Virus record (IMG/VR): IMGVR_UViG_3300037346_000580
Span: 1-64,000 of that record
Source: a virus
Taxonomy: Duplodnaviria; Heunggongvirae; Uroviricota; Caudoviricetes
DNA length: 64,000 bases
Direction: 5' to 3' (one strand)
In this document: piece by piece, positions 40,696 to 58,698 of the stretch
Position numbering within the stretch: position 1 is the stretch's first letter
Layout of the letters: every line of letters begins with the position of its first letter
The notes under the pieces: generated by a model
Told to the model about the DNA's origin: nothing
The model's input: the letters and a program-made list of their open reading frames with translations, nothing else
The model's database searches: none
Position numbers and translations under genes: made by a program

Positions 40696-40957
40696 CTTTT
40701 TGGTATTTGTCTAAAAATTTTTGTATCATTGATGATACACTTGCTGATTTACCAATAATCATATTTAACTGACCATCCTGTGGACCGACAGTGTTATTAA
40801 GTGCTTCGTGCATTCTTTCCCTGAGAGACATATTACCTACTCTTTCTTCCTCTGCTCTGTTCTCAAGGTCAATAAACTCCTTCCATTCGGGAGAAGCCAC
40901 AATTTCATTTATGTTATTGTACTTCATCTTCTTCCAATTTAAGTGATTTAATTTCAA
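40688..40957 (-). CDS. Hypothetical protein (89 aa).
   Basis: ORF. Confidence 0.4.
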   Translation of the reverse strand: MKLNHLNWKKMKYNNINEIVASPEWKEFIDLENRAEEERVGNMSLRERMHEALNNTVGPQDGQLNMIIGKSASVSSMIQKFLDKYQKDE

Positions 40958-41753
40958 ATTCTGGAATCATAATATCCATAAATTCTCTCTCCTGCGTGAA
41001 TATAGGTGTTGGAATCATTTGCCATTTAAGTCTTTCAACTTGGCCATCTCTACCTTCAACCATTGTAGGTACCTTAGCGATAATACCACCTCTTTTTTCT
41101 CTAAAGTGGTAGTCGTTCCAATTGATACCTTTTTTGAAGATCATTTCCTGCATATCCTTCTCCTTCTTGCCATTCAATTCACTTTGTGAATAAAGACTTT
41201 GAGCAACCGATTGGATTGAGTTCCTAGTCCCGTCTTGTTGTCTGAATATGAAATAGTTCTCAACCTCGCTTTTCTGAGAAATCTGAAATACCCTAGAGTC
41301 AAATTCAGCTTTTTTAATTCCTTTTAGTTTTTCTATCCATAAAGGTGTTATTGTTTTAATACCACTATTAAACTTTTCTCTGATGTATCTGTCAACCCTT
41401 AATTCGTTGAATTTTGATGTCGCCATGGAAGCTGCAACTGAAGCCATCTTCTGAAGGTTCCCATCGAACCACATCTGTGTGTCTCTTTCTTCAAAATCAG
41501 TAATTAGTATAGAAATCTCATCTGATTGACAATATCCAAATTTTGCTCCCTGTATATTTTTACAAAGGTATGCTGTTGTTTCATTCATGTCTGAAATTAA
41601 GCCCTCATCAAATGGTGACACTAGACCTTTTGTATAGGTATGGAAAGCTTTCCCATCAATTCTAATTAATGTATATGTTCTGCGTGGAACATAGTATCTA
41701 AAACGGTCTTCATAGAATTCCTTCATACGATCACCAAGGCTGAAATTTTTCAT
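40914..41753 (-). CDS. Thg1-like protein (tRNA-His guanylyltransferase family; 3'-5' nucleotide addition / tRNA 5'-end repair).
   Basis: YTLIRIDGKAFHTYTKG (the RIDGxxFHxF motif), GYCQSDEISIL (the QSDE motif) and VAASMATSKF are the signature blocks of Thg1/TLPs. Confidence 0.7.
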   Translation of the reverse strand: MKNFSLGDRMKEFYEDRFRYYVPRRTYTLIRIDGKAFHTYTKGLVSPFDEGLISDMNETTAYLCKNIQGAKFGYCQSDEISILITDFEERDTQMWFDGNLQKMASVAASMATSKFNELRVDRYIREKFNSGIKTITPLWIEKLKGIKKAEFDSRVFQISQKSEVENYFIFRQQDGTRNSIQSVAQSLYSQSELNGKKEKDMQEMIFKKGINWNDYHFREKRGGIIAKVPTMVEGRDGQVERLKWQMIPTPIFTQEREFMDIMIPEFEIKSLKLEEDEVQ

Positions 41754-42068
41754 ATCTTTATTTAATTTACATCGTCCAGGTAGTTTTTCCTGATCCTGGA
41801 AGGCCGACAGTTATATGTAGTTTTTGGTTACTCATCTTTTCCTATGAATATGAATGGGTATTTTGTTTTTATTTTTTCTATATCCTCTTCAGCCCTATTA
41901 AGGGTGATCCTCGTGATATTCTTTGGCATCTAACTTTTTTGAATATATTACTCTCAGTAGATCCCTTATAATCTCCTCCTGCGATTCAAAACTGTAATTA
42001 GCCATTGTTGGATAAATTCTTTCCGCTGCTTCGTGGATATCTATTTTTTGAGAAGTATTTTCCATGGA

Positions 42069-42299
42069 TTATCGGTTTTCATCGGGGAAGAACTTTTCAA
42101 ATAAAATTCCAAATGCACCATGTTCTGTTACGTCAGACTTTCCGGTTGATATCTCTCTTGCTGTTACCGAGATGATTCTCCATCCATTTTTTAGCACAGC
42201 ATCAACTTCCTCCTGTGCACTAATTTTACCACTTGAGGTAATTAAAAATTTTTGTTTAGTTACTGCCATTTTATTTGGGTTTATAATGAAAAAATACAT
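42069..42299 (-). CDS. Hypothetical protein (76 aa).
   Basis: ORF. Confidence 0.4.
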   Translation of the reverse strand: MYFFIINPNKMAVTKQKFLITSSGKISAQEEVDAVLKNGWRIISVTAREISTGKSDVTEHGAFGILFEKFFPDENR

Positions 42300-42712
42300 T
42301 CTTTTTTTGGATTAAATATCCTCAATACCGTGCCTTGTCCGAATATCCAATTGAAGTAGTGACCTCTGTACTTAATAGTCCCACCTCCGAAATTTGCATC
42401 GAATTCATCTAGTTGTTTGTTATATTGTCGACCCCCAATTTCGGCGGCATCAAATACGAAATACATTAGATTTCTTGGATGTGGCATATAGCCTTTAGCA
42501 TAGCATCTATCCTCGTAGGCTCTATCATGCCTAGCTATTTCTTTTGCTAATTTAGATTCAAATTCCTCGCGTGGCAAGTCATTGATATACTCAAATGCTC
42601 TAAGCTTTCTCTCTTCCACTCTTTTCAATTTGGCTTTCATTCTTTCCATGGAGGCTTTCCCCTCCGGTGTTTTCATAAAAGCTCTCATTTCATCTAGCAT
42701 CTCTTTTGACAT
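42281..42712 (-). CDS. Hypothetical protein (143 aa).
   Basis: ORF. Promoter motif upstream (42733-42775). Confidence 0.45.
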   Translation of the reverse strand: MSKEMLDEMRAFMKTPEGKASMERMKAKLKRVEERKLRAFEYINDLPREEFESKLAKEIARHDRAYEDRCYAKGYMPHPRNLMYFVFDAAEIGGRQYNKQLDEFDANFGGGTIKYRGHYFNWIFGQGTVLRIFNPKKECIFSL

Positions 42713-42784
42713 GATCAGTTTGTTAAATTATATTGCAAATGTATGGATTTAATTCGAGATATAAAAATTTATTTGGAATTATTT

Positions 42785-43432
42785 TTACCAGCCGTGTCCT
42801 TGGTTACCATTGTCCTCCGACATTCCTATGTAGGTGTTATTAACAAGATTAAAATGGTAGTAGGTGTTCCTTGTCTGGCTTGGTCCCCTGTTGTTATGCC
42901 AAGGAGTCCACTCATATGCAAATTGAACTGTTAGCTTATCATTTCCATTCCTTTTATATTTGATTTCTAGCGAGTAGTGTTGATGACCACTTCTTTCGCC
43001 ATAGTTCAGCTGGATCAGTTTCTTATTTTTGGTATCGACTATGTACCTCTTGTCCCAGGTAAATTTCAGGTTACTTAGAAGTTTATCGTATTTAGCTTTA
43101 GTTATTTTATCCATCTGAAAACTATATTGAATATCCCTTTTACCCTCCTCCCATGACCTTTCGTTCTCCCTTAGATATTGCTGAAGGCTTTTGCAGTCGT
43201 CGTCCTTGAATTGTTGAAACCACTTTTCATGCTCATCGACAGGTATATATTCAAGAATCTCCTTACCCGACTTGGTAAAAGATTCGAAAAATTTCTCCTG
43301 ATAGTTTTCAAGATTTTTCTTAATCAGCTCAAATACATCCAGTTGCATTTGCAATGTTTGCATATTTAGAAGCTCTGTGAAGTCTGCAGGTGACTTGAGA
43401 AGCTTTACCTTTACTGTTTTCTTTTCTACCAT
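42785..43432 (-). CDS. Member 1 of a tandem three-paralogue family (215 aa).
   Basis: VKVKLLKSPADFTELLNMQ ... NLENYQEKFFESFTKS is shared with the next gene. Confidence 0.5.
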   Translation of the reverse strand: MVEKKTVKVKLLKSPADFTELLNMQTLQMQLDVFELIKKNLENYQEKFFESFTKSGKEILEYIPVDEHEKWFQQFKDDDCKSLQQYLRENERSWEEGKRDIQYSFQMDKITKAKYDKLLSNLKFTWDKRYIVDTKNKKLIQLNYGERSGHQHYSLEIKYKRNGNDKLTVQFAYEWTPWHNNRGPSQTRNTYYHFNLVNNTYIGMSEDNGNQGHGW

Positions 43433-43953
43433 TTTTTTACCTGTCCCTTGTCCATGTAGCTATAATCGCTACAATCTATTAATTCGTTTGTATCAAATCT
43501 GAATGACATTCTAATATCTTTTTTGAGCTCGTCGAAATAAGTTGCCCTGTAGTATACTTGCGTATTTATTTTAATAGTCCTCTTATCACTTGCTATTAGA
43601 ATATTATCTTTCATCTTGAACTTAAGCCCCGCCAGATCATCTATTTCCATCATCCTTTTGTCTTTATGGTTGACCACCCAATTTTTTGCGGATTCCCTGA
43701 ACTTTTTAATGTGCTCCGGATAAGTAAAATCATAATCATAGCAGTTGAATATTTCATATTCTCCAATATCCTCGGGTGGTATGCATTTTATTACCTCATC
43801 TGAAGTCTTAATGAAGGATCGGATAAAGTCCATCTGATACTTTCTCAAATTACTCTTCAAATGATCCAATACTGACATCTGAGTCTTTAGATCCTGGAGA
43901 TCTAATAAATCGTTAAAATCAGCAGGGGCCTTAATTAAGTTTACTTTTACCAT
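43426..43953 (-). CDS. Member 2 of the tandem paralogue family (175 aa).
   Basis: VKVNLIKAPADFNDLLDLQ ... NLRKYQMDFIRSFIKTS. Confidence 0.5.
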   Translation of the reverse strand: MVKVNLIKAPADFNDLLDLQDLKTQMSVLDHLKSNLRKYQMDFIRSFIKTSDEVIKCIPPEDIGEYEIFNCYDYDFTYPEHIKKFRESAKNWVVNHKDKRMMEIDDLAGLKFKMKDNILIASDKRTIKINTQVYYRATYFDELKKDIRMSFRFDTNELIDCSDYSYMDKGQVKKW

Positions 43954-44591
43954 CCTTCTTCTGTGCTTTCAGATTTTAATGTTGTCATATCAATTGTACA
44001 TTTCATATGATAATTATGCACATACGGGTAGATCATATCTGCCGGATGATTTCTCGTGAATTCGTTATAGGGATCGAAAAACCGGTGTCTCCTATATTTT
44101 ATTACGAGCTTATTTAATTTATAATCTATTCCTATCTCTGGATCAATATTCGAGGGTATAAAAAACATGGTTTTATTTTGAAAATCAACAAATATCGAAC
44201 AGGGCTCAGAATCATCAAAGATTGTATTTCTAAAAGGATCCATTTTTTTCTGTGTCTTACAAAACCAAGTCATGCAATGTTCAACGCCTCTCACCCTCAA
44301 TATCATCGAAATGATTTCGGATGCGGTTTTCATCATTTTATATTGACCGAATTCGACGTTTAATAGCGAAAATTTATAAATGTCATCTGGTGATATAATA
44401 CCATCCAGATCTGACAGTTTATCAAGCCTAAACATGCTACATTTAATAAACCCATCAACGTAGTTGTCTATATTATCCGATATTTTATTGATCTTTTTTT
44501 TAAGTTCTTTTCTTCTCTTAAACTCATCCCCTAATGCAAGGAGATTTGTAATTGAGTGAAAATCAAATTCTATGTCTAAGTTTGTCTTCAT
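43947..44591 (-). CDS. Member 3 (more divergent) of the tandem paralogue family (214 aa).
   Basis: Similar architecture. 7-nt overlaps between successive genes. Confidence 0.45.
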   Translation of the reverse strand: MKTNLDIEFDFHSITNLLALGDEFKRRKELKKKINKISDNIDNYVDGFIKCSMFRLDKLSDLDGIISPDDIYKFSLLNVEFGQYKMMKTASEIISMILRVRGVEHCMTWFCKTQKKMDPFRNTIFDDSEPCSIFVDFQNKTMFFIPSNIDPEIGIDYKLNKLVIKYRRHRFFDPYNEFTRNHPADMIYPYVHNYHMKCTIDMTTLKSESTEEGW

Positions 44592-44609
44592 GGAAATTAA
44601 TTAATGGTT

Positions 44610-44640
44610 AAAAAAAAGCTGCATCAGTGATGCAGCTTTT
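44610..44640. terminator. Bidirectional terminator (A8-GCTGCATC-AGTG-ATGCAGC-T4).
   Basis: Inverted repeat with A-run and T-run. Confidence 0.65.
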
Positions 44641-44659
44641 TACATATATTATCCTATGA

Positions 44660-45055
44660 TTAACTAAGTTCTTCCTCGATTTTCAATGTTGATAGAACAT
44701 CATCGATGTCACACATTTCTAAATCAAATTTATCATCTTTGGAAAGATTTTTTCTAAGAGTTTTTCTTGCTACCTTAAGTTTAGCAAGTCTAGTTTCGGA
44801 TCTAAGCTCGTCTAAACGATTTTTGATATCTTGTGCCCAGACAGAGATTGGAAAGCCCATGAATGTAGCTTCCTCATCCAAATCTTCTTCAGTAAGACCT
44901 AATTCCTTCGCAGCTTCACCCAGACCTTCCTTTTGCTCGTTAATAACCTTCTGCGCTTTAACTACTTGTTTAATGGTTGATAATTCTGCTACATATCCAA
45001 CTGCTGGGATATACTTTGATGCCGTTGCATAAGTTGTCTTTGGTGTAGATTCCAA
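44660..45055 (-). CDS. Hypothetical protein (131 aa).
   Basis: ORF. Confidence 0.45.
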   Translation of the reverse strand: MESTPKTTYATASKYIPAVGYVAELSTIKQVVKAQKVINEQKEGLGEAAKELGLTEEDLDEEATFMGFPISVWAQDIKNRLDELRSETRLAKLKVARKTLRKNLSKDDKFDLEMCDIDDVLSTLKIEEELS

Positions 45056-45175
45056 TGTTGTAATTTCTTTTTCTACTGCTTTGAAGTTTTGTAAAACCTG
45101 ATCTCTTTTTGTTATTTTGTTATGTTTTTTTAAATTAACAATACAAATATATAAAAAAGTTTCGAATAAAAAAAA

Positions 45176-45484
45176 TTATTTTGATTTATTTTCCAAATTA
45201 GGAAATTCTAGATACTCTTTGATCCCTAATATCTCTTTTATCGCTCTTATCTTTTCACCACTTGGATCTGTTATACTAAGTAGTCCTACACTTGAGCAGA
45301 CGCTTTTTGTTTCTTCGCCCATTCCCCACCCTGATGAAAAAACCTCAGCATCCCTGCCAACAATTTCCTCAAATTTTTCTCTAACAGCCCATCTTAACGG
45401 AAAGTCTGCTCCGTGATGTAATTCACTTCTCTTAACTGGACCTATTACACAGTTCCAATACTCATTTTTTTCTTCACTATCCAT
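45176..45484 (-). CDS. Hypothetical protein (102 aa).
   Basis: ORF. Confidence 0.4.
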   Translation of the reverse strand: MDSEEKNEYWNCVIGPVKRSELHHGADFPLRWAVREKFEEIVGRDAEVFSSGWGMGEETKSVCSSVGLLSITDPSGEKIRAIKEILGIKEYLEFPNLENKSK

Positions 45485-45968
45485 TTAATATTCTTATTGC
45501 TCTATTAGTACACTCGTTTGTTAACCCATATCCTATATCAACACAATCTGGATGATTAATGTTATTCGATGTTCTTACAAAATTACACCTCTGATCTGGT
45601 AAGAAATCGTCATCGTCATCAAGAATAACATATTTTTGAATTTGTGGATTTTCATCCAGCCAATATTCAATTTCATGACCTCTCTCAATTCTAGTAGTTA
45701 ATTGCAATAACCTCTCATTGAAGAGATATGTGCAATCGGGTGTTACGTCTATAATATCCCCTGGTAGACCTCTTTTTTCCCACATCTCCCTCATTTTTTC
45801 CAATCCTGCATATCTCCAAGTTGATGATATAACAATTTTGGCTTCGGTTTCGTCTATAATTCTTTTAAGATTGTCAACGAAGTGACTGTGAAATTGGCTT
45901 CCAAATTCATCATGGTCGTGGGAATAAACATTCAGTACCCCATCAATATCAAGAAATATTATTTTCAT
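45477..45968 (-). CDS. HAD-superfamily phosphatase-like protein (motif I FLDIDGVLN).
   Basis: DxDGV motif at the N-terminus plus VISSTW (motif II-like). Confidence 0.5.
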   Translation of the reverse strand: MKIIFLDIDGVLNVYSHDHDEFGSQFHSHFVDNLKRIIDETEAKIVISSTWRYAGLEKMREMWEKRGLPGDIIDVTPDCTYLFNERLLQLTTRIERGHEIEYWLDENPQIQKYVILDDDDDFLPDQRCNFVRTSNNINHPDCVDIGYGLTNECTNRAIRILNG

Positions 45969-48427: not shown

Positions 48428-48638
48428 CCCTCAGATTTTCATATTGTTTGATCATACCACTCATATTAAAAAATATAAAGGTTAATACTATTGCTCCTAT
48501 AGAAATCAAACATTCGAACTCAATAAATCTTGTGTCTGCCTGATAAAATAAAAATCCAGAAACAAACCAGAATATCACTGCAAATATCCCCGAATCTCTT
48601 TTAAATTTCTTAGCTTCTTTTAATTGTTCTGTTGTCAT
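48417..48638 (-). CDS. Small membrane protein (73 aa).
   Basis: ORF. Two TM helices. Confidence 0.4.
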   Translation of the reverse strand: MTTEQLKEAKKFKRDSGIFAVIFWFVSGFLFYQADTRFIEFECLISIGAIVLTFIFFNMSGMIKQYENLRDGK

Positions 48639-48902
48639 ATATTATGTTTAAATTAAAAATCCGAATCATTACACAAATATATGGTAATAATTCGGATTAA
48701 AAAAATAACAATAACAATTATTTTAAAATTGTTTTTTAAATTTTACAGAATAGCTTAGTTCTCCTATCTAAATTGGTTGTTTTATCTTTCGATTTTTCTC
48801 GAGGTGTAGTGCAGCAGCCCACTGCAGTTCTCTCCTTACCTAACTATCACCAATGCGTCTATTCCATAAAATCCTGTTCATTCACCACAAAGAACATATT
48901 TC

Positions 48903-49052
48903 ATTTTGTGGTCAGTGCAGGGCTCGAACCTGCAAGGATTTAAAGATATAATCTCCTACTACTTGTGTCTGTAGTATGTCCACCACGTTTCCCCATTAAA
49001 CACACTTTTAGGTACTATGCAGCATGTAAACCATTCCATCAACTGACCATCC
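48903..49052 (-). tRNA. tRNA-like element C. The 3' half is canonical (GCAGG-TTCGAGC-CCTGC, then ACTGACC-A). The matching 5' acceptor GGTCAGT plus a D-arm-like segment lie 150 nt upstream. Possibly an intron/insert-containing tRNA or a small tmRNA-like RNA.
   Basis: Perfect 7-bp acceptor complementarity across a 150-nt span. The internal segment contains TAG-TAG. Confidence 0.35.
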
Positions 49053-49290
49053 ATGAATCAAAAAATTTCGGCCTCGGCTAAAAATATCATCACACATTAA
49101 AACTTTTTTGAATGGTTCAGGTATCTAAATAGATTTAACTATTCTGTATCTACATATCATTAAAGCAGTAACTTTTTTAAGGTTCAAAATCCGAACTGCA
49201 ACTCATTTGGTCCTTAATCCACTTAAGCAGATTTCTAGGTTCATTCCTAGCACAATGTAGATACTACATATAATTGTCATCGTCGATTTT

Positions 49291-49383
49291 GTGGAGAAGA
49301 GAGGGCTCGAACCTCTGCAAGCCGCTAAGCTGTTCCTAAACCTTCCTCTGGATTCGAACCAGACTTCCATCCATAGCTTCTCC
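49291..49383 (-). tRNA. tRNA-like element D (93 nt). Perfect 7-bp acceptor GGAGAAG/CTTCTCC, T-arm AGAGG-TTCGAGC-CCTCT, and an additional internal hairpin TCTGG-TTCGAAT-CCAGA (anticodon-like loop with CGA). Class-II-like length.
   Basis: Manual reverse complement and stem pairing. Confidence 0.45.
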
Positions 49384-49396
49384 TTTTTTAATTTGT

Positions 49397-49456
49397 AGGG
49401 ATAGAAGGAATCGAACCTCCGCTATAAAGCTCTACCACTAAGCTACATCCCGATAT
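49397..49456 (-). tRNA. tRNA-like element E (about 60 nt). Acceptor, canonical D-arm TA-GCTT-AGTGGTA-GAGC and T-arm GGAGG-TTCGATT-CCTTC are present, but only 8 nt sit where the anticodon arm should be. An anticodon-arm-less mini-tRNA.
   Basis: Manual reverse complement. The D-arm and T-arm are textbook; the anticodon stem-loop is missing. Confidence 0.4.
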
Positions 49457-49457
49457 A

Positions 49458-49706
49458 TTAACAATCACCGTTGCATGGTGATTGACATGTTCCCCATACC
49501 TCATAAGAGCATTTCTGTGAATATCCCGTTGGTGAATCCGGGTCAGACCAAGATCCTCCGTTTCTTACGCTACATAAAGGAATTCCCAATGCATTTGCCT
49601 CTATAGAAAGCTTTCGGTATATTCCGAATCTTTGCTTTTTTCTAGCAATCATTCTTCTAAGACCTTCTGCCTTATATTCAGCCTCCTTTGTTTTATCCTT
49701 TGCCAT
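49458..49706 (-). CDS. Small Cys-rich basic protein (82 aa).
   Basis: ORF. Promoter motif upstream (49725-49760). Confidence 0.4.
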   Translation of the reverse strand: MAKDKTKEAEYKAEGLRRMIARKKQRFGIYRKLSIEANALGIPLCSVRNGGSWSDPDSPTGYSQKCSYEVWGTCQSPCNGDC

Positions 49707-49774
49707 GTTCCTTATTAATTACATTGCAAATATATGAAATCCTTTCGAAATAAAAAAATAAAATCATAAAAAAA

Positions 49775-49972
49775 TTATTTTTTTAATCCAGCTATCATTG
49801 ATTCAGCTGATAGCTTTCTGGCCTCCTCCATTTCGAGTGCTGATAGAAATTTATCCAGAGTTAAATCGCAATATTCATCAATCCAGTCACCTATAAAGTA
49901 TAAATTTCTAGTACCCTTAAGAACACCAAATAGAATTGGGTCCTTCGCTTTCTCCACCTCCGCTTTTGTCAT
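49775..49972 (-). CDS. Hypothetical protein (65 aa).
   Basis: ORF. Confidence 0.35.
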   Translation of the reverse strand: MTKAEVEKAKDPILFGVLKGTRNLYFIGDWIDEYCDLTLDKFLSALEMEEARKLSAESMIAGLKK

Positions 49973-50227: not shown

Positions 50228-50524
50228 TTATTGCGGTTCTGTTGATCCTATTCCTCCAATTAAATCTCCACCAGTCCAGACTGTGATTATTTGACCTTCT
50301 ATAAATCTTTCACGTGTTCTGTTACGCACCATTATGATCGTATCATCACCTTGTTTATTCCTTGTTTTTAAGCTCGCTGCTCCATCCCAGTTGCTTACCC
50401 TTATTACTCTACCTACATATTTATTTGGCTCCGTATGGAGCGCTATAATAAGCAATATTGATAATATAGGGACTCCGATAAAGACAAGTAATGGTAATAT
50501 AATGTCTTTTAATGCTTCTTTCAT
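50228..50524 (-). CDS. Membrane-anchored hypothetical protein (98 aa).
   Basis: ORF. TM helix. Confidence 0.4.
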   Translation of the reverse strand: MKEALKDIILPLLVFIGVPILSILLIIALHTEPNKYVGRVIRVSNWDGAASLKTRNKQGDDTIIMVRNRTRERFIEGQIITVWTGGDLIGGIGSTEPQ

Positions 50525-50976
50525 TACATGTTTCTTTTGGTGTCTCTGTCTATGTCTTTCTCCTTTATGCTTTGTCTTTTATCATATGTCTTCTTGCCTC
50601 TTGCCAGAGCTATATCCAACTTGATTAATCCTTTCTCGGTAGTAAAGATCCTGAATGGTACTATGGTCATTCCTCTGTCCATTTCATTCTGTAGTTTTCT
50701 AAGCTCGCTCCTATTCAGCAGTAATCTTCTCTCCCTGTTAGGTTCATGAGAATATATGGATGATATCGGGGTTATGTTTAGATTTTTCAGAAAAAGTTCC
50801 TTGCCATTGAAATAACAGTATGAATCTACGAAGGAAACCCTGCCGTCACGAATAGCCTTTACTTCAGATCCCAGTAATTGCATACCAGCAGTTAGAGTTC
50901 TGATGAACTCATAATCAAACTTTGCTTTTCTGTTGTTTATATTAACTTTATTTATCATTATTCCTCTTCTATCCAT
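50524..50976 (-). CDS. smpB: SsrA-binding protein SmpB (trans-translation factor).
   Basis: NRKAKFDYEFI ... AGMQLLGSEVKAIRDG ... DSY ... RRLLLNRSEL ... ARGKKTYDKRQSIKEKD aligns along the full length with bacterial SmpB (NRKARHEY ... GWEVKSLRAG ... DSY ... RKLLL ... KGKKQHDKR). Confidence 0.85.
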   Translation of the reverse strand: MDRRGIMINKVNINNRKAKFDYEFIRTLTAGMQLLGSEVKAIRDGRVSFVDSYCYFNGKELFLKNLNITPISSIYSHEPNRERRLLLNRSELRKLQNEMDRGMTIVPFRIFTTEKGLIKLDIALARGKKTYDKRQSIKEKDIDRDTKRNM

Positions 50977-51209
50977 GCTGCAGCAGTTCGTGTACCGCTT
51001 TCAACACAAGTTAAACCCATATCAGCTTGAACATAACAATTTGGATGCTCTGCAACAAGTTCCTCAAATTTCTTATCTGAAACACAAAGAACAATTATGA
51101 TGGAATCTGTAGGTGTAATCCCAAGATTCTTAACCGCATGGGCAACCTGAGAAGCCACTTTACCCTCGGGCATCTTTAAATTTCTTTTATAAATCGCTTT
51201 TATTTTCAT
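50958..51209 (-). CDS. PTH2-type (archaeal/eukaryotic-like) peptidyl-tRNA hydrolase, short form (83 aa).
   Basis: NLKMPEGKVASQVAHA matches the PTH2 motif DLKMGKGKIAAQCSHA. C-terminal DMGLTCVESGTRTAAA resembles the DAGRT...G..TV block. Confidence 0.55.
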   Translation of the reverse strand: MKIKAIYKRNLKMPEGKVASQVAHAVKNLGITPTDSIIIVLCVSDKKFEELVAEHPNCYVQADMGLTCVESGTRTAAAWIEEE

Positions 51210-51616: not shown

Positions 51617-52066
51617 TCATACTGTGATCATTTTAAGTGCTTCTGCAAGTCCGAATTCCAATGCCTCCTCGTACGTTCGCCAATCACTATATTCGTCATA
51701 CCATCTATTAGCATTTAGATTGCCTTCGTTATCAAGTTGACGCATAAATCCCCAACTTGTATAATAATTAATATATTTACCATCTGCTGATAGATCATGA
51801 GAGGCATCAACATAAATGTTATGAACTTCTCTTAACCATTTCTGAAGTAATCCTTGTGTAGGAGCTTCAGCTATAAAATGAGTATATTCATCTTCACTAC
51901 ATCTACCTAAAATTCTTGGTAGTTGATGTGGAAATAAGCAATCACCGCCCCTACCCATTTCTAAAGTGTGTTCTTCTGTTTCAAAATAAGCTTCTTCACA
52001 AAGTACATCAAATCTTTTTTCTTTAGCTAATATAGCTGTTTCTAGAGTTATTCTGTTTTCTTTCAT
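51617..52066 (-). CDS. Member C of the ETAKLA/LQKWLRE/YEEALE family (149 aa).
   Basis: LETAILAKEKRF ... APTQGLLQKWLREVHNIYV ... TYEEALEFGLAEALKMI. Confidence 0.6.
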   Translation of the reverse strand: MKENRITLETAILAKEKRFDVLCEEAYFETEEHTLEMGRGGDCLFPHQLPRILGRCSEDEYTHFIAEAPTQGLLQKWLREVHNIYVDASHDLSADGKYINYYTSWGFMRQLDNEGNLNANRWYDEYSDWRTYEEALEFGLAEALKMITV

Positions 52067-52818
52067 GCTCTTAATCTTTCCATTAGTTTGTCTCTTTCCT
52101 TTATATAATCTCTAGTATCAAAATCTTCATCAAGCATTATTCTAAAATCCTCCCAAATATAATTAACACATCCGAAATCTTCTATTTTTTGGGTTTCCTT
52201 CAACTGCAAAGCAAAATGTAATATTCTCAGAGCGTGAAATATACCTTTCTTTGCACGATCCCTGAATCCATCCCTTGCCTGCATATCAGCAGTGTGCCAC
52301 GAAGCAGAAACTTTGGAGATGATCTTTTTTGTCATCACCTTATTGTCCCACTTTTGTACCTTGAAAGGCCAGGTACTTTTAATAACATCTCCTGGATTCA
52401 ATGACAGGCATTCTAGTGCACTGATATCATAGTTATTTATGGCATCAGTAAATCCACTTCGTGAATAAAGAATCCCCTGGATGTTTCGATTGTCGCTGGA
52501 TATTGCATTCTGTTTAAAAGCACCGCTCTTTAACATTGCTCCTTTGGTAACTATGATGTAATCATGATCTGAATTATGATCAGCAGTTCCATAGATTCGA
52601 CTACCATATCTGTATATGTTTAGCACTGGCTCGTCTATCTTCAGATCTCTGAGAATTTTATGGACTGCAGCTTCCGAATATCCATTCTTAATGTCATCTA
52701 TATAGGCTTGTCTTTCTTCAATATCCTCCTGGGTCAATTTCTCAGGTTCGTCCGAACCTAGAGAGTCAATAGGATTCCATGAATCCAGCATTTTTTGAAA
52801 ATCCGATTTACTATTCAT
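52063..52818 (-). CDS. Pol-beta-superfamily minimal nucleotidyltransferase (motif YGSRIYGTADHNSDHDYIIV), 251 aa.
   Basis: GS-x9-DxD NTase signature. Immediately downstream of the CCA-adding head-domain gene with a 1-nt overlap. Confidence 0.5.
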   Translation of the reverse strand: MNSKSDFQKMLDSWNPIDSLGSDEPEKLTQEDIEERQAYIDDIKNGYSEAAVHKILRDLKIDEPVLNIYRYGSRIYGTADHNSDHDYIIVTKGAMLKSGAFKQNAISSDNRNIQGILYSRSGFTDAINNYDISALECLSLNPGDVIKSTWPFKVQKWDNKVMTKKIISKVSASWHTADMQARDGFRDRAKKGIFHALRILHFALQLKETQKIEDFGCVNYIWEDFRIMLDEDFDTRDYIKERDKLMERLRA

Positions 52819-53555
52819 TATAATTCAAATGTTGGTTTTAGCCAAAGCCCATTTTTAATCAATACCTTTAATAACTTGCCATCCATGTGATCATCACAAT
52901 CTGTAAGCAGTCTCATGGATCTAAGAGTGTCATGCTTCATCATTTTTGATATCTCTTCCCTGATTCTTTCACCACTAACTGTTAGATCTAATTTTTCAAC
53001 AAGCTCGGGTTGCTTCATAGCTTCCCAGATATCGTCACACATAACAAGATCTTTTGTTATAATAAATCTCATGGCCCTTAATAATCTCAAGGGATCATCC
53101 ATAAATGTTATCATTGGATCCCTGGGTGTTCTTAGAACACCAACTCTAAGATCATCCACACCATCAAACAGGTCTATAAGATCTCCTTCCTCGTCTACAG
53201 CCATTGCATTAATAGTAAAGTCTCTTCTGATTAAATCATCCTCAAGAGTTCCAAGTTCTAATCTGGGTCTTCTCGTTCCTTCGATGTACCCAACTTCTTT
53301 TCTTGCCATAACAAAATCTGCTACGAGTTTCTCGTTTGGATCACCTTTAGGAAATCTTGCTCTGATTGTGTACATATCTGGCACTCTAAGAAAGATCTCA
53401 AATCCATTCTCGGTCATCCAAGCATCCATGCCCTGAAATCCCTCCTCCACTGTTTGGCTTAGATCATCTAGCACGAAAGTGAAGTCTATGTCCTTAGAAT
53501 CAATCCCAAGTATAGCATCACGAACGCAACCTCCGACCTTGTATAATTTTGGCAT
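52818..53555 (-). CDS. tRNA nucleotidyltransferase (CCA-adding enzyme / poly(A) polymerase head-domain family), 245 aa.
   Basis: LYKVGGCVRDAILGIDSKDIDF is the GGxVRDxxLG...DxD head motif. RRDFTINAMA matches the downstream RRDFTINA block of class II CCA enzymes. Confidence 0.7.
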   Translation of the reverse strand: MPKLYKVGGCVRDAILGIDSKDIDFTFVLDDLSQTVEEGFQGMDAWMTENGFEIFLRVPDMYTIRARFPKGDPNEKLVADFVMARKEVGYIEGTRRPRLELGTLEDDLIRRDFTINAMAVDEEGDLIDLFDGVDDLRVGVLRTPRDPMITFMDDPLRLLRAMRFIITKDLVMCDDIWEAMKQPELVEKLDLTVSGERIREEISKMMKHDTLRSMRLLTDCDDHMDGKLLKVLIKNGLWLKPTFEL

Positions 53556-53560
53556 AATTT

Positions 53561-53806: not shown

Positions 53807-53865
53807 ATATAAGAAAAATATTCGAACAAAAAAAATAACCTTAATGTGAATTAAGGTTATTTTTA
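53801..53865 (-). promoter_or_regulatory. Conserved promoter motif (TTGCAAATATAAGAAAAATATTCGAACAAAAAAAA) fused to hairpin terminator AACCTTAATGTGAATTAAGGTT.
   Basis: Motif family plus inverted repeat. Confidence 0.5.
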
Positions 53866-53883
53866 AATAAAAATATTAGGGTT

Positions 53884-54267
53884 TTACATTATCATATTTT
53901 TAACTCTAAACATCTGCCTGTTCATTGGCTCGTTCATATCAAATATTATTCTTGATACACCCTTACCCGGCTCAAATTTCCAAGTCATTTCATTTATTCC
54001 CAATGAGCTTTCAAGTATCTTTGCTATCTCGTCAATATAATAACTTATTCTATTTGGAACTGCTCCGTTATAAGCTTTAGACCACCACTCCACAATAAAC
54101 TCAGTATCAGAAAGAGGTTCAGCTACAATGTCAGCTTCCATTGACCTATCGTCAAAGGCCTTGTCAAAGTCAACTCTAAATTTTTTATTCTCTAGATAAT
54201 CCCTTAGGAGATCAAGATTATGCTCGGATTCTTCGTTCCATTCCTCGTAGATTTTTACATTTCCCAT
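53884..54267 (-). CDS. Hypothetical protein (127 aa).
   Basis: ORF. Confidence 0.45.
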   Translation of the reverse strand: MGNVKIYEEWNEESEHNLDLLRDYLENKKFRVDFDKAFDDRSMEADIVAEPLSDTEFIVEWWSKAYNGAVPNRISYYIDEIAKILESSLGINEMTWKFEPGKGVSRIIFDMNEPMNRQMFRVKNMIM

Positions 54268-55115
54268 TATATAAATTTCAGACTATTTTTAACCCTTTTT
54301 AAAGCTTTGATTTGTTTCGAAAGACCTGAGGTTATCTTTAGATCTTTTCCACCCATATTAGAAAACCATAGATCTTTTGCCTCGTCGGAAAAATCATTAA
54401 CAGCACTCTCTAGAGATGGATCCTCTTCCATAGCCCTTGCGATCATAACCATTACTGTATCATCATCAAACTTATATTCATTAGCAATGGCGTCTAGATT
54501 TCCATCAACCAGATCAGAAACCAGAGATTGATATGTTTCATCAACCTGCTCCGCCATTATTTTTTTAAGATTTGGAAATCTCCTTATATCTGCATTAAAA
54601 ATATAATTTGCATCTTTAATAGCATCGATTATTAATTCAATCGTTCTGGTGAATATATTTTTAAGATCTCCCATGTGAATTGTATTGTATGAAACGTCAA
54701 CTTCTATATTTTTACCGATATCTGAGAATTTACGCTTGACGTCATTATCATTAGTATAATATCTTAGCCTCTCGTCGAATAAAAAATTAATTACTATTCT
54801 ATCGTCAATTAAATCGGGAATTATGTGGCATTCTGTGTTTTTTTCAAGATCTCTAACTTTAATTATAAATTCCCTCGGTAAATTGAAATTTATTCTCATA
54901 CTTTTTGGATTATTATCCTTCTTATATCCCCTAGTTAGACTGATTGCAGATATACCTTTATTAAATGATAATTGGTGGTTTCTTTGGTTTCTATAATCTT
55001 CCCATTTTTTGATCATCGGTATTTCTGAGAATGCACCTTCTATCTCATAATATGCACTATAATCTATCTCCTCGTTGATGGCCCAATCTTTAAATTTTTT
55101 CGTCAACATTATCAA
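54267..55115 (-). CDS. Hypothetical protein (282 aa).
   Basis: ORF. Confidence 0.5.
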   Translation of the reverse strand: MIMLTKKFKDWAINEEIDYSAYYEIEGAFSEIPMIKKWEDYRNQRNHQLSFNKGISAISLTRGYKKDNNPKSMRINFNLPREFIIKVRDLEKNTECHIIPDLIDDRIVINFLFDERLRYYTNDNDVKRKFSDIGKNIEVDVSYNTIHMGDLKNIFTRTIELIIDAIKDANYIFNADIRRFPNLKKIMAEQVDETYQSLVSDLVDGNLDAIANEYKFDDDTVMVMIARAMEEDPSLESAVNDFSDEAKDLWFSNMGGKDLKITSGLSKQIKALKRVKNSLKFI

Positions 55116-55527
55116 TCTTAATTTTTTTCTTCCCTGTTGGTCTTGGTTTTTTTACCCTAGGTTCCTCCTCAGATTTTATATAAACCACTGTATTTACAGC
55201 TTCCTCGCTGATGGGTTTTAATTTATGGTAAAGAGCTGCTATCTCGTCGAAAGTTAGATTACTCTTTTTACCATTTATATCAACAGTACACGAAACTACA
55301 TTTCCCTCCACGTATCCCTTTAAAGAATCCACTCTATCGAAGCTTCTTGAAAAAACTCCATCCTCCTCGAATTCTTTATTTGTATAATAACATGTTTTAT
55401 ATGTTAATAGTTTTCTAACTGTTTCTAAACTTAAATCAAATTTTAACTTTCTATCCGCAGCACTTTGATGTATTTTTATCATCTTTCTAGCAACCTCAAG
55501 GTCACTAATTTCTTGTTTTTTATTCAT
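55090..55527 (-). CDS. Hypothetical protein with a degenerate HNH-like segment (SFDRVDSLKGYVEGNVVSCTVDINGKKSN), 145 aa.
   Basis: ORF. Weak resemblance to the HNH nuclease core; the first His appears replaced. Confidence 0.35.
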   Translation of the reverse strand: MNKKQEISDLEVARKMIKIHQSAADRKLKFDLSLETVRKLLTYKTCYYTNKEFEEDGVFSRSFDRVDSLKGYVEGNVVSCTVDINGKKSNLTFDEIAALYHKLKPISEEAVNTVVYIKSEEEPRVKKPRPTGKKKIKIDNVDEKI

Positions 55528-55533
55528 TTAATC

Positions 55534-56271
55534 TTAATTTCTGTGTATTACTTCTATATCCTCAACATCAGTATCCCCAATAGGTATTTTAAGTGACGCG
55601 GTGTAACTCATTGAATCTGAGGCATCACCACAGTTAGCATCCTCCCACGTGTAATACTGATTATTATCATTTCCTTCATAGGATATTTCAAAATTACCGT
55701 GTGCTATCTCATTTCCATTCCAAAATACAATTACTAATTTATCATCACTAGTTGTTTTTGACCAATATATGGAATCTATATCAGTATTAAATCTTAATAT
55801 CCCGAATGTTGGTGGCCACCATCCCTTTAACTCATCCGGAATAAAATAGAAACATATTGTTTTTCCTGAATTACATCTGATTAATATACCTCTACCATAT
55901 TCGCCATTTCTATACGATGGTCGTCTAAGATTAATCTTATCCATCAGGTCTAGAGCTTTTTTCTCCTTGTCAGAAACAATCGGACAATATGCTTCAGGTA
56001 AATATCCCTTATCTTTTAATAATTTAAAAAGTTCGTTATAAACCTCATTGTTTGGTTTATGTGTTATATCAGATAATTTGAGATAAGATCCGGTGAAATT
56101 TGTTTTATCCCTACTATATTTTGCATAATGTCCATATTTATCACACTCAACCTGGTCCATTATATTTGGATTTATACTTTCGAAGTATTCATCAACAGTT
56201 TTATACACTTCCGTCTCCGTTGGTGCGATTTTCACATGATCCTCAATAATTGAATATGTTTCGTTTTTCAT
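55534..56271 (-). CDS. Hypothetical protein (245 aa).
   Basis: ORF. Confidence 0.5.
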   Translation of the reverse strand: MKNETYSIIEDHVKIAPTETEVYKTVDEYFESINPNIMDQVECDKYGHYAKYSRDKTNFTGSYLKLSDITHKPNNEVYNELFKLLKDKGYLPEAYCPIVSDKEKKALDLMDKINLRRPSYRNGEYGRGILIRCNSGKTICFYFIPDELKGWWPPTFGILRFNTDIDSIYWSKTTSDDKLVIVFWNGNEIAHGNFEISYEGNDNNQYYTWEDANCGDASDSMSYTASLKIPIGDTDVEDIEVIHRN

Positions 56272-56303
56272 TTATGTACTTTTCTTTCACTATATATCTA
56301 AAC

Positions 56304-56335
56304 AAAAAAAAAGGACCAGTTGCTCTGGTCCTTTT
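56304..56335. terminator. Bidirectional terminator (A9-GGACCAG-TTGCT-CTGGTCC-T4).
   Basis: 7-bp GC-rich stem with an A-run and a T-run. Confidence 0.65.
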
Positions 56336-56352
56336 AGCATCAATATTTTTTA

Positions 56353-56889
56353 TTAGAATCTATAGTTCACACCAAAGCTAGGCGTATTAAATGGATTAGT
56401 AACTCCACTAAATCCAATTTTTGTTGTACTGTCACCATTCTTAACAGATTTATATGACGCTAAATCAGCTACAGATAAAGTTAAAGATAAGTTTTTAGTA
56501 ACAAAATAATTAGCACCCAATCCTAAATTAGCACTTAGAGTTTTCGTATCGCCTTCTTTATTACTATTTAATCCTAATTGAGAATGTACATTAAAATGCT
56601 CACCGATTCTTAAAAAGTAACATCTAGCGAATGCGCCGAAACCAAAAGAGTCTGTTGTTACACCAGCAGTTTTTGTGCTTTGTGTATTAAGAGAAACACC
56701 AAGAGCAAATTTGTCTGTCACAAAGTGACCAGCTGTTGGATTGAAATCGAATGTTTTTGTATCATCTGAGGATACGAATTTAACAGTACCTTCTACAAAA
56801 GTATCGCCTTTAGAAAATGTTTGAGCAAAGCTCGTTTGCATTGCGATTAAAGCAATTGCGACAAATAAAATTTTTTTCATTTTTTTCAA
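56353..56889 (-). CDS. Outer-membrane beta-barrel protein (OmpA/opacity-like porin family) with a Bacteroidetes-type signal peptide.
   Basis: MKKMKKILFVAIALIAMQTSFAQ signal peptide. Alternating amphipathic strands. C-terminal ...GVNYRF with terminal Phe. Confidence 0.6.
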   Translation of the reverse strand: MKKMKKILFVAIALIAMQTSFAQTFSKGDTFVEGTVKFVSSDDTKTFDFNPTAGHFVTDKFALGVSLNTQSTKTAGVTTDSFGFGAFARCYFLRIGEHFNVHSQLGLNSNKEGDTKTLSANLGLGANYFVTKNLSLTLSVADLASYKSVKNGDSTTKIGFSGVTNPFNTPSFGVNYRF

Positions 56890-56957
56890 ATTTTGATTTT
56901 CCTACTCTGTTAACGGTTTTCGGATTTCACCGTATGTTATATTATATGCTGAATTAA

Positions 56958-57164
56958 TCAGAAAGTTTCAGTATCGTCGAGAAATCTAACAGTCTTCCAA
57001 TCTATATTAGTAATATGCTCAAGCAATTTCTCCAATGCATTAACTCTGTTTCTAAGATCATCAACGGTACCTGTTAGTGAATTTATATCATCGGATTTAT
57101 AGGAGCTATAATGTTTTAGAGCCTCTATATCTTGGCTGATCGTCCCTATTTTATCCTGTGCCAT
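56958..57164 (-). CDS. Small coiled-coil protein (68 aa).
   Basis: ORF. Confidence 0.35.
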   Translation of the reverse strand: MAQDKIGTISQDIEALKHYSSYKSDDINSLTGTVDDLRNRVNALEKLLEHITNIDWKTVRFLDDTETF

Positions 57165-57565
57165 ACAAAATCATTGTTATCAAATAATATACTGTCTCTT
57201 TGCGGGTTGTGAGATATCACTGTCTCTGCTATTGGCGGGGCTGGTATCATTCTTCTTTCCCATCCGTAATTAACCTCCGTAAAATTTGGACGGTATACAG
57301 TATCAATCTCAACTGAATTCTCCTTTATTCTGTGATTACTACACCTCATTAAAATCTTTCCCGTAATCGGAAGAAGATATGAATTATCCATATGGATATC
57401 ATGGATATCAAATCCATCATCCCCTTTGAATCTGATCTGAGATATATCTCTGCTATCACATTTTTCACATTTATCACACATAAATAGTGCTTTCCTCCCA
57501 TACCAAACCATTAGATATGATTCCAAATATGATGGATCTGTCAATGCGTACATCACTCTTTTCAC
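57146..57565 (-). CDS. Cys-rich hypothetical protein (139 aa).
   Basis: ORF. CDKCEKCD motif. Confidence 0.45.
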   Translation of the reverse strand: MKRVMYALTDPSYLESYLMVWYGRKALFMCDKCEKCDSRDISQIRFKGDDGFDIHDIHMDNSYLLPITGKILMRCSNHRIKENSVEIDTVYRPNFTEVNYGWERRMIPAPPIAETVISHNPQRDSILFDNNDFVWHRIK

Positions 57566-58698
57566 TCTTTCTCCTTAAGTAAGAAATTATTGGATATAAC
57601 CTTGAAGCTTGTTTTTCTATCCAAACTTCTGATAACATATCCTTCTCTCTCCGCTGACTGGTTTAGTGTTGATTTTCCTTCCGCAAACTTTAGAATTTCA
57701 TCTATTGTTTCAGGAAGCTCAAAGTTCTCGTCAATAATAGGAACTGTATCTAAGCCAAGAGACTTTGCAATCAGATTAAAATGCTCAAAATCAAAATATT
57801 CCTGTGAATCTATATTAAAAGCATTATAAACCTTTAGAGCTTGTCCCTTTACTTTGTAAGGATTCCCCTGTATACCCTCTCCTATAATTTCCCCCTGAAT
57901 TGCAAAATTACCTCCCATATCAAGCATATTTACTTCGATGTCAAGATTTTTTGCAACCTTCCAGAAGGTGTTCTCCTTCTTGGCTCTTTCTACACCATCG
58001 TCACATATAATCATTCCTTCAACAAAATCCTCGGGACGACAAAGATCCAAATTTCTAGAGCATACCCCGAATTCTCCATTATACACATAAAATGTAGATG
58101 ATGTACCATCAAGTTTTTCAGTGACGTAGAATTTTTTATCTTTCATCTTGTCGTAATTCTTTGCAAGATTTTGAATTCTTTCCTCGTCAGTTTTAGGTAT
58201 AAAACTTGGAAAGTTACCCTTAGCAACTCCTGCTAGTTCTGCTGGAATTGGTGGATCCCATTTGATGATACCAAGGAGATGTGTTACGTCTGCTCCTTCT
58301 TCTATAACTAAAGCACCATCATAAGGGCCCAATTGATAAATGGGTCCATCCGGTGTTTGTAGGTGACCAAGTTTCTGATCCTCATACTCACCTTCCAGTA
58401 TGGAAAGAGGTAAAATAAGTCCCTGTGAAACCTGACCTCTAAGTTTAATTGTTCTCAAACGGAATCCCTCCTGATCTAACATCTTTCTATATGAGCTTTT
58501 TCTAAGGAATTCGAATTCTTCCCTGATTGGCAAGAATGAATCGACCTCACAGTAGATAACGAAATCTCCAGTTTTAAATCCATTGTCTTTCCCAGTAACT
58601 AGTTTCCATCCATCAACAACTGCCATTTCTATAAGATCCGCTCCCTCTATCGGTTGGATATCTGAGATCTTTCGGATACTCGCAAGTTTTCTTTCCAT
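57562..58698 (-). CDS. ATP-dependent RNA ligase (RNA_ligase/Rnl family, DRB0094-like).
   Basis: N-terminal RKLASIRKISDIQPIEGADLIEMAVVDGWKLV OB-like segment. Nucleotidyltransferase motif I YVTEKLDGTS (KxDG). Confidence 0.7.
   Translation of the reverse strand: MERKLASIRKISDIQPIEGADLIEMAVVDGWKLVTGKDNGFKTGDFVIYCEVDSFLPIREEFEFLRKSSYRKMLDQEGFRLRTIKLRGQVSQGLILPLSILEGEYEDQKLGHLQTPDGPIYQLGPYDGALVIEEGADVTHLLGIIKWDPPIPAELAGVAKGNFPSFIPKTDEERIQNLAKNYDKMKDKKFYVTEKLDGTSSTFYVYNGEFGVCSRNLDLCRPEDFVEGMIICDDGVERAKKENTFWKVAKNLDIEVNMLDMGGNFAIQGEIIGEGIQGNPYKVKGQALKVYNAFNIDSQEYFDFEHFNLIAKSLGLDTVPIIDENFELPETIDEILKFAEGKSTLNQSAEREGYVIRSLDRKTSFKVISNNFLLKEKE

Follow-up and report, generated by a model that had tools for sequence, protein, structure and literature searches.

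RNA repair and ribosome rescue have been described as one combined complement of jumbo phages (Iyer et al. 2021, Viruses 13:63, section 3.4.9; PMC7824862). That complement comprises phage tRNAs, RtcB or ATP-dependent ligases, polynucleotide kinase, HAD phosphatases including the Swiss-army-knife family, RlaP, a CCA-adding enzyme, Thg1 and PTH2, and a counter-defence role has been proposed for it. Thg1 had been linked to kinase, ligase and CCA-type enzymes in RNA repair, with a phage copy noted (Anantharaman et al. 2010; PMC2904730), and SmpB and transfer-messenger RNA (tmRNA) are reported from huge phages (Al-Shayeb et al. 2020; PMC7162821). Here, we analyse a 64-kb stretch of phage DNA (positions 1 to 64,000 of IMG/VR record IMGVR_UViG_3300037346_000580; hereafter the window), in which seven genes for RNA repair and ribosome rescue lie between 40.9 and 58.7 kb. 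A 2016 study by Burroughs and Aravind is reportedly to be named beside that of Iyer and colleagues for the RNA-repair and ribosome-rescue complement.

We hold with moderate confidence that the 40.9-58.7 kb interval is a phage neighbourhood serving RNA repair and translation maintenance, such as has been catalogued before in jumbo phages. The first-pass annotation of this DNA had named the same protein families and argued for countermeasures against host nucleases, the same logic as in the jumbo-phage proposal, and had considered the combination undescribed. That last claim fails in view of the three papers above, as Iyer et al. describe the combined set and Al-Shayeb et al. report SmpB with tmRNA. 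What was proposed is thus partly supported: the protein set belongs to the known jumbo-phage repair and rescue kind, the identities are right, and the function is plausible by analogy with what the literature predicts for these families.

Proteins of the interval were compared with Pfam, PHROGs, NCBIfam and PDB, and the analysis covers 64 kb of the source phage. Profile, structure and motif evidence supports the Thg1-like, CCA-type, second nucleotidyltransferase, ligase, SmpB, PTH2-like and HAD assignments alike; all seven genes are on the minus strand. The first, at 40914-41753, encodes a 279-aa Thg1-like protein, probably a 3'-5' nucleotidyltransferase of the bacterial and phage Thg1-like protein (TLP) type. 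It matches PF04446 (5e-25; 88.3 bits against a cut-off of 29.2) and phrog_4717 (1e-79). Its top solved relative is the Bacillus thuringiensis Thg1-like protein (BtTLP, 4kgk; 1.7e-56), with eukaryotic Thg1 (3wbz; 6.5e-7) far behind. The carboxylates equivalent to human D29 and D76/E77, whose absence on alignment would have spoken against the assignment, are present as D33 in RIDG and D78/E79 in QSDEIS, aligned identically to 4kgk. Such a protein would rebuild 5'-truncated acceptor stems, with the 3' strand as template.

Repair of the opposite end may involve two adjacent genes. The gene at 52818-53555 encodes a class II tRNA nucleotidyltransferase of 245 aa, consisting of head and neck only, that matches PF01743 (4e-20; 72.8 bits) and phrog_24229 (2.5e-62). 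Motifs A, B and D are present; the sequence shows GGCVRD at residues 8-13, DIDF at 22-25, RRDFTIN at 110-116 and, for the neck motif [ED]DxxR, DDPLRLLRAMRF at 153-164. The protein aligns to the first ~200-250 residues of solved enzymes of 390-580 aa and falls under every full-length NCBIfam cut-off (e.g. 109.7 against 438.8). It would restore or add the 3' CCA. The second nucleotidyltransferase, at 52063-52818, is a 251-aa member of the Pol-beta superfamily with a two-domain, kanamycin-nucleotidyltransferase-like fold, and is weakly RlaP-like. It carries the hGS...DxD signature, matches phrog_388 (2e-9) and reaches NTP_transf_2 under the cut-off (0.0038). Its AlphaFold2 (AF2) model (predicted local confidence, pLDDT, 86.8) has a kanamycin-nucleotidyltransferase/HalB-like fold, and the top Foldseek matches are Hailong HalB, kanamycin nucleotidyltransferase and LinB (E ~1e-4; TM score 0.26-0.43). 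The Pfam RlaP profile PF10127 does not match the window protein and weakly matches 19 of 36 homologues (best 8.6e-6). This enzyme may restore other lost terminal nucleotides.

Damaged ends would also require cleaning and sealing. The 163-aa HAD phosphatase at 45477-45968 belongs to the Swiss-army-knife RNA-repair family (PF18143, HAD_SAK_2, 5.6e-28, 98.5 bits against a cut-off of 27.5; phrog_1818) and carries the DxD nucleophile motif as D7/D9 in DIDGV. It is predicted to strip the 3'-phosphates left by metal-independent RNases. The gene at 57562-58698 encodes an ATP-dependent RNA ligase of 378 aa, in which an N-terminal OB domain (PF21189, PHA02142 OB; residues 5-98, 5e-37) precedes the nucleotidyltransferase domain (PF09414, RNA_ligase; residues 189-368, 1e-24). 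It passes the equivalog TIGR02306 (DRB0094) with 179.7 against a cut-off of 151.15, aligns with Naegleria NgrRnl (5cot) over both domains at 2.6e-64, and presents the motif I (KxDG) lysine as K195 in KLDG. Its sequence places the ligase in the Rnl5 (NgrRnl/DraRnl) type and not with T4 Rnl1, so that the analogy with T4 RnlA drawn earlier does not hold. Rnl5 enzymes such as NgrRnl and DraRnl seal 3'-OH/5'-PO4 nicks in duplex RNA; the phage ligase would accordingly close such nicks within double-stranded RNA, for example in tRNA stems.

An HNH-like or Srd-like small protein (55090-55527, minus strand; phrog_1400, phrog_3118) travels with the ligase, and its counterpart also lies between Rnl5 and SmpB in two distant phages, L215 and L249, at 72-73% identity. 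In L215 the Rnl5 homologue (1131-3714) is split by an inserted ORF, and the downstream piece starts with an intein-like ...VHNFYANDILVHNC junction, which suggests an intein or a homing-endonuclease insertion.

The remaining two genes are predicted to act at the ribosome. SmpB, at 50524-50976, is 150 aa long and includes the C-terminal tail. It matches PF01668 (1e-48), NF003843 (167.5 against a cut-off of 130) and TIGR00086 (163.1 against 119.1); the alignment with 7ljp reaches residue 154 of 161, and a DKR motif stands at 132-134. By these comparisons the window SmpB is canonical. Its start is overlapped by 19 nt by the gene for a truncated PTH2-like peptidyl-tRNA hydrolase of 83 aa (50958-51209), an adjacency that is kept in the close relatives L001-L003. 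The PTH2-like protein matches PF01981 over 22 residues covering the N-terminal GK..Q..HA motif (1.5e-5; 25.6 bits against a cut-off of 23) and phrog_31188 (1e-13), and is below the NCBIfam cut-off (27.9 against 126). At the positions of K18 and D86 in Sulfolobus Pth2 (1xty), which we take to be the catalytic Lys and Asp, it has K17 and D63. SmpB and the mini-PTH2 would release ribosomes that have stalled on broken mRNA or tRNA and return peptidyl-tRNA to use; the tmRNA for SmpB would come from the host or from another part of the phage genome. As a whole, the set may sustain translation while nucleases or transferases of host defence attack tRNA or mRNA. It appears to fit damage to stems and ends better than breaks in the anticodon loop, since Rnl5 requires a nick in a duplex and no Pnk was found.

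The window is part of a huge phage. A Gp23-like capsid match supports the phage assignment, and the close relatives L001-L003 (SmpB ~90% identical) lie on IMG/VR contigs of 430, 435 and 80 kb. A megablast search of phages with 19 kb of the window gave no match, and relatives were therefore reached through proteins. Loci fetched in this way carry L-numbers; partner genes were sought in the fetched flanks, which extend 10 kb for the SmpB and Thg1 loci.

Gene order is kept in L001-L003, running Rnl5, outer-membrane protein, HNH-like protein, CCA-type enzyme, second nucleotidyltransferase, PTH2 and SmpB. Thg1 and smpB are 12.8 kb apart on the L001 contig and 15 kb apart on that of L002. In the distant phages L215 (319-kb contig) and L249 (271 kb), at 45-73% protein identity to the window, Rnl5, the HNH-like protein, SmpB, Thg1 and the CCA-type enzyme lie within 11-16 kb in a changed order. 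Thg1 is accompanied by the CCA-type enzyme, the HAD phosphatase or both in five further loci (L212, L216, L232, L240 and L248), and at least one partner is found within 10 kb in 12 of 41 Thg1 loci. The neighbourhood thus turns up repeatedly in a clade of huge phages, where it withstands changes of gene order; it is not general to phages carrying these genes.

Several points weigh against a repair and maintenance neighbourhood. The roles given above are those of the families; what is observed is the presence of the genes, the families to which they belong and catalytic residues that are intact. The CCA-type enzyme is without the body and tail domains that hold the tRNA elbow, and the PTH2-like protein is about one third shorter than characterised enzymes (83 aa against a full domain of ~115 aa). 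No polynucleotide kinase was found among the genes seen, and 5'-OH ends would therefore not be healable by them. The P-loop protein that the first-pass annotation had put forward for end healing (19677-20336, plus strand) is an AAA_28, NadR-type kinase (AAA_28, 1.4e-13); its profile match and its position in an NAD-salvage group assign it to NAD salvage rather than to polynucleotide phosphorylation. No tmRNA was found in the window, either by ARAGORN or by Rfam at gathering scores and at E up to 1, as had been noted at first pass. In the interval, 24 of 31 ORFs are unrelated or unannotated, which makes it a neighbourhood and not an operon. The only abutting pairs are PTH2-SmpB and the two nucleotidyltransferases, and the latter pair is split by inserts of 0.3-1.3 kb in L001-L003. 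Finally, no partner lies near Thg1 in 29 of the 41 loci, and no other gene of the set lies within 10 kb of the SmpB genes of L004-L012, which are ~50% identical to that of the window.

These same distributions would be expected if there were no functional unit at all, but only independent auxiliary genes lying together through descent from the early, non-structural region of one ancestral genome. The interspersed ORFs, the lack of partners near the SmpB genes of L004-L012 and at most Thg1 loci, and an NAD-salvage group in the window that is as loosely clustered are consistent with this. Against it, clustering persists in L215 and L249 despite the changed order and the divergence of the proteins, and in the window the seven genes, among 99 ORFs, span 16.8 kb of 64 kb (permutation P ~0.0025, computed post hoc). 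Taken together, this makes mere co-residence unlikely as the explanation, and we retain the repair and maintenance reading.

In the closest relatives, too, no tmRNA lies within 10 kb of smpB (L001-L003). The scale of these negatives is that of the 64-kb window and of these flanks, two of the close relatives being contigs of 430-435 kb; among the matches listed for the conserved tmRNA pattern CTAARCATGTAG...TTCGA, none is on the relatives' contigs. A permuted tmRNA called by ARAGORN in L001 at low threshold was not credible. More distant relatives, at ~50% SmpB identity, do encode one, directly after smpB in L008 and L009 and 7 kb away in L011. In L011, whose SmpB is 49% identical to that of the window, a GOLLD RNA (15429-15837; 321 bits) accompanies the tmRNA (17712-18108). 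By tblastn in the phage collection, SmpB has matches in 68 records and the Thg1-like protein in 164; the best phage matches to the window SmpB are LR756501 (735 kb) and Lak phages.

Within the interval, a non-coding stretch on the minus strand (48640-49456) follows a small ORF (49458-49706) and holds three tRNA-like RNAs. The cluster of tRNA-like genes proposed by the first-pass annotation is real to the extent that these RNAs exist (48909-49452). They are non-canonical, and ARAGORN calls none of them as an ordinary tRNA (48600-49800). Each has a 7-bp acceptor stem, a T-arm of the GGTTCGA type and A73, with no encoded CCA. The first is a 57-nt RNA (49396-49452, minus strand) with acceptor stem, D-arm and T-arm and no anticodon arm; it has a C1.U72 mismatch and ends in A73 followed by CAAA. 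It scores 40.9 bits with the Rfam tRNA model, 15 positions of which (the anticodon arm) are replaced by 1 nt, and 66 bits with the family model R1.

The other two RNAs were found by a custom scan, on the same strand. The 92-nt RNA (49292-49383) has the acceptor GGAGAAG/CTTCTCC, the T-arm AGAGG-TTCGAGC-CCTCT, a central hairpin TCTGG-TTCGAAT-CCAGA, a poor D-arm and a long extra region; it weakly matches the tRNA-Sec model (19 bits, E 2.3) and has no homologue in the fetched loci. The 140-nt RNA (48909-49048) has the acceptor GGTCAGT/ACTGACC and the T-arm GCAGG-TTCGAGC-CCTGC, with ~90 nt instead of the anticodon arm. Its relatives in L001 and L003 show compensatory acceptor changes (GGCCAG/CTGGCC, GACCAG/CTGGTC and GGTCAG/CTGACC). 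An interpretation of the 92-140-nt RNAs as intron-containing tRNAs, through the ARAGORN intron option, was rejected, as anticodons and intron positions disagree between homologues. The four close relatives differ in what this locus contains.

Downstream of the tRNA-like genes, a conserved non-coding stretch (~48737-48875, minus strand) has a predicted long closing stem. It is 87-89% identical in L001-L003, against 72-82% for flanking coding sequence; RNAalifold finds three compensatory pairs from four sequences, and Rfam gives no match. A hairpin with a T-run follows, and then the next TATATTTG box, a promoter-like element considered below. Relatives differ by a 1-nt indel within 48640-48905, which rules out a conserved reading frame there.

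The 57-nt RNA belongs to a family. A search was made for a D-arm joined to a T-loop by only 8-16 nt, a spacing impossible for a normal tRNA; this pattern leaves the flanks unconstrained, and acceptor pairing is thus independent of it. It found 55 loci in IMG/VR (L013-L067); 596 Gb of bacterial and archaeal genomes gave only 22, several of them with a different, chained arrangement. When 36 distinct phage sequences are aligned (A1), the 7 nt on either side form an acceptor stem. Pairing is seen in 95.7% of cells (40-55% in slid controls), and double changes in 171 cells (57 in shuffles). Covariation extends to all seven acceptor pairs and to four of five T-stem pairs, and position 1:72 is unpaired in 10 of the 36. 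In ~40% of family loci the RNA lies inside or beside ordinary tRNA arrays. No Rfam entry for the family and no description in the literature searched was found; one literature match to the term anticodon-less refers to a cleavage product.

Pattern matches in Bacteroidota bins (Chitinophagaceae, Cytophagales and others) were rejected as the same element, as their flanking strands pair with neighbouring units and not with one another. In these genome bins (L070, L071, L074, L075, L078, L080, L081, L084 and L087) the D-arm/T-arm units are chained or form closed hairpins. The chained units may be a Y-RNA-like or multi-unit tRNA-like RNA.

The small ORF, on the minus strand, encodes 82 aa with a basic N-terminal helix and a Cys-rich C-terminus ending in ...CQSPCNGDC*. 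Its stop codon lies 5 nt ahead of the 57-nt RNA, and it has its own TATATTTG box at 49727-49734. The same arrangement defines a subfamily in large aquatic phage contigs, in which the RNA starts 3-11 nt past the stop of a 58-87-aa ORF. It comprises 16 distinct loci including the window, besides which it was found in L016, L017, L020, L024, L028, L033, L039, L044, L049, L058, L061, L072 and L083; the C-terminus is Cys-rich (at least 3 Cys) in 15 of the 16. The N-terminus is basic and the C-terminus is of four types: ...CQSPCNGDC, ...C..CYEDS.GDI, ...CC.DYGTC.CS and ...C.H.CAMDI. The ORF family is rare, with 67 clusters among 1.84 billion representatives, all of 54-130 aa, in which the match always reaches the last residue. 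The small ORF has no Pfam or PHROG match, and its AF2 model (pLDDT 72.6) shows a long N-terminal helix and a poorly predicted Cys-rich end. Differences between relatives in the last codons are synonymous, which shows that the ORF is translated. A hairpin that these codons could form in the window is not kept in L016 or L020, where the differences are again synonymous; the constraint is thus that of protein coding. The ORF-RNA cassette, of which no description was found in the literature searched, is the part of the interval that deserves follow-up.

The RNAs bear directly on how the enzymes are to be read. Neither the tRNA-like genes nor the tmRNAs of L008 and L011 encode CCA, which leaves work for a CCA-adding enzyme. 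The CCA-less RNAs would be natural substrates for RNase P and the CCA-adding enzyme, and are likely to be substrates of the neighbouring end-processing enzymes, a link suggested by their proximity. The enzymes might then serve mainly the maturation of the phage's own unusual RNAs rather than repair: CCA addition would complete tRNA-like or tmRNA transcripts, the Thg1-like protein would edit mismatched 1:72 positions, and ligase and phosphatase would finish intermediates. Consistent with this proposal, the encoded CCA is missing throughout, 1:72 is open in more than a quarter of the aligned family, and in the window and in L001-L003 the RNAs sit inside the gene neighbourhood. The genes and the RNAs nevertheless separate in both directions. 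L215 and L249 keep Rnl5, SmpB, Thg1 and the CCA-type enzyme with no tRNA-like RNA within 10 kb, and most anticodon-less RNA loci have none of these enzymes in the fetched flanks. Moreover, a host CCA-adding enzyme is normally available. Maturation as the main task therefore seems improbable, and repair and translation maintenance remains the reading we prefer for the enzymes.

A further alternative joins the 57-nt RNA to ribosome rescue. SmpB or the small Cys-rich protein would stand in for the missing anticodon arm, the complex would enter stalled ribosomes and accept the nascent chain with no tag encoded, and the neighbouring PTH2 would hydrolyse the peptidyl-RNA. Jakobid mitochondrial tmRNA, which consists only of the tRNA-like domain, resembles this idea. 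The 57-nt RNA consists of the parts found in the tRNA-like domain of tmRNA, with a D-stem added; PTH2-smpB is 1 kb away, the window shows no tmRNA, and G3.U70 with A73, the alanine identity set of tmRNA and tRNA-Ala, occurs in a 68-nt anticodon-less variant in L001 (15716-15782) and L003 (16466-16534) that is absent from the window. Such a particle is nonetheless highly improbable, as position 3:70 in the three window RNAs is G-C, A-U and U-A, with no G3.U70, so that charging by alanyl-tRNA synthetase is not expected; the window SmpB is of the canonical kind, its tail complete; at many phage loci of the RNA family the fetched flanks contain no SmpB; SmpB/Thg1 clusters occur in L215 and L249 with no such RNA within 10 kb; and the RNAs lie 5 kb from smpB in L001-L003.

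RNAs and enzymes can also be brought together in a way that leaves the repair and maintenance reading in place. We offer as a tentative possibility that the 57-nt RNA belongs to an undescribed, widespread family of phage tRNA mimics in which acceptor stem, D-arm and T-arm are kept and the anticodon arm is missing, with a role at the acceptor end and tied to repair and rescue genes. In the huge-phage subfamily, the RNA would be transcribed as the 3' end of the Cys-rich protein's mRNA. RNase P would release it a few nucleotides after the stop codon, and the CCA-adding enzyme would then complete it. As a decoy, the product could draw off host toxins that act on the 3' ends of tRNA by cleavage, extension or pyrophosphorylation; or it could be a ligand of the ribosome or of a synthetase, together with the small protein or SmpB. 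A further candidate role for the tRNA-like RNAs is that of processing signals for the micro-ORF mRNA.

The window as a whole yielded no canonical tRNA. A second pair of degenerate tRNA-like genes lies at 11731-11995 (minus strand): an 88-nt element called by ARAGORN as tRNA-Asp(atc), with 28.9 bits to the Rfam tRNA model (slightly below the cut-off), and one of ~80 nt in which a 4-bp stem with a 9-nt loop replaces the normal anticodon arm.

The host is probably a member of the Bacteroidota. Clues in the window are a DUF805b RNA together with an outer-membrane beta-barrel gene, and one copy of the ORF-RNA cassette is on a contig binned as Flavobacterium. The TATATTTG box, which matches TAnnTTTG, the -7 promoter box of Bacteroidota, occurs 18 times in the window where 7.6 copies are expected, and stands mostly upstream of genes; the two-box promoter TTTG-N17-21-TANNTTTG shows no such enrichment. 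The DUF805b motif (Rfam RF02914; 56899-56933, minus strand) scores 36.5 bits, barely over the gathering score, directly upstream of the outer-membrane beta-barrel gene (56353-56889).

The rest of the window contains other gene groups. Between 19677 and 38179 lies a loose NAD-salvage and ADP-ribose group that includes, besides the NadR-type kinase, NAPRTase-family (29001-30749), NADAR (33826-34302), phosphoribosyl-pyrophosphate (PRPP)-synthetase-like (37274-38179) and nucleoside deoxyribosyltransferase-like (23520-24035) genes. An SPFH/Band 7 protein (24127-26055) and M28/M42 peptidases are encoded in the same region. At 3588-5325 (minus strand), a serine-recombinase gene (Resolvase domain) adjoins a TnpB-like gene (OrfB_IS605 and Cas12f1-like TNB); the pair looks like an IS607-type insertion in the phage genome. 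Paralogous ORFs of ~140 aa at 28078-28910, 51617-52066 and 62027-62452 (minus strand) share an N-terminal ETAxLAKEKGF motif and match phrog_12005 (function unassigned); one of them sits between PTH2 and the second nucleotidyltransferase.

The protein set adds a Bacteroidota-type huge phage to what is known of phage counter-defence by RNA repair. The Rnl5, SmpB, Thg1-like and CCA genes, which stay together across divergent huge phages, are a reasonable target for finding which host defences that damage tRNA or mRNA they answer. Particular to the window are the smpB/mini-PTH2 overlap, the Rnl5 ligase, the CCA enzyme of head and neck only, and a set in which no Pnk is seen. The larger potential value lies in the RNAs, a conserved tRNA that lacks the anticodon arm, with compensatory changes and coupling to a micro-ORF. 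If functional, they would represent a new type of tRNA mimic and offer a handle on how phages manipulate tRNA end-processing, aminoacylation and ribosome rescue.

T4 Pnk and Rnl1 mend tRNA-Lys cleaved by PrrC, a phage healing-and-sealing response to a host tRNA nuclease. The window would share the logic of phage-encoded repair against such nucleases. It differs in that no Pnk was found and in its ligase, which is of the OB-fused NgrRnl/DraRnl type and would seal duplex nicks, not breaks in the anticodon loop. The closer counterpart is the jumbo-phage complement (PMC7824862), with which the window shares a ligase, a Swiss-army-knife HAD phosphatase, a Pol-beta nucleotidyltransferase, a CCA enzyme, Thg1 and PTH2, with the same predicted roles. 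Most jumbo-phage ligases in that account are Rnl1 and Rnl2, whereas that of the window is Rnl5; the complement includes the polynucleotide kinase not found here, and the window's CCA enzyme and PTH2 are truncated. SmpB is unmentioned there, whereas in the window smpB overlaps the PTH2 gene. In encoding a canonical SmpB, the phage resembles the huge phages with SmpB and tmRNA, such as the Lak phages, of >200 kb (Al-Shayeb et al. 2020). Unlike in those phages, no tmRNA accompanies it in the window or within 10 kb of smpB in L001-L003.

The RNAs have their own counterparts. The bacterial Y RNA YrlA has a tRNA-like domain, and the T4 stable RNAs species 1 and 2 are encoded in a tRNA cluster. Like these and the tRNA-like domain of tmRNA, the 57-nt RNA combines acceptor, T-arm and elbow with no anticodon and is encoded among tRNA genes. 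In contrast to all three, its anticodon arm is reduced to 1 nt with nothing substituted. Its ends are open as in tRNA, whereas in the YrlA-like matches of Bacteroidota the acceptor-like stem is closed by a loop, and it is without the G3.U70 of tmRNA. In one subfamily, again unlike tmRNA, YrlA and the T4 RNAs, it starts 3-11 nt past the stop codon of a Cys-rich micro-ORF.

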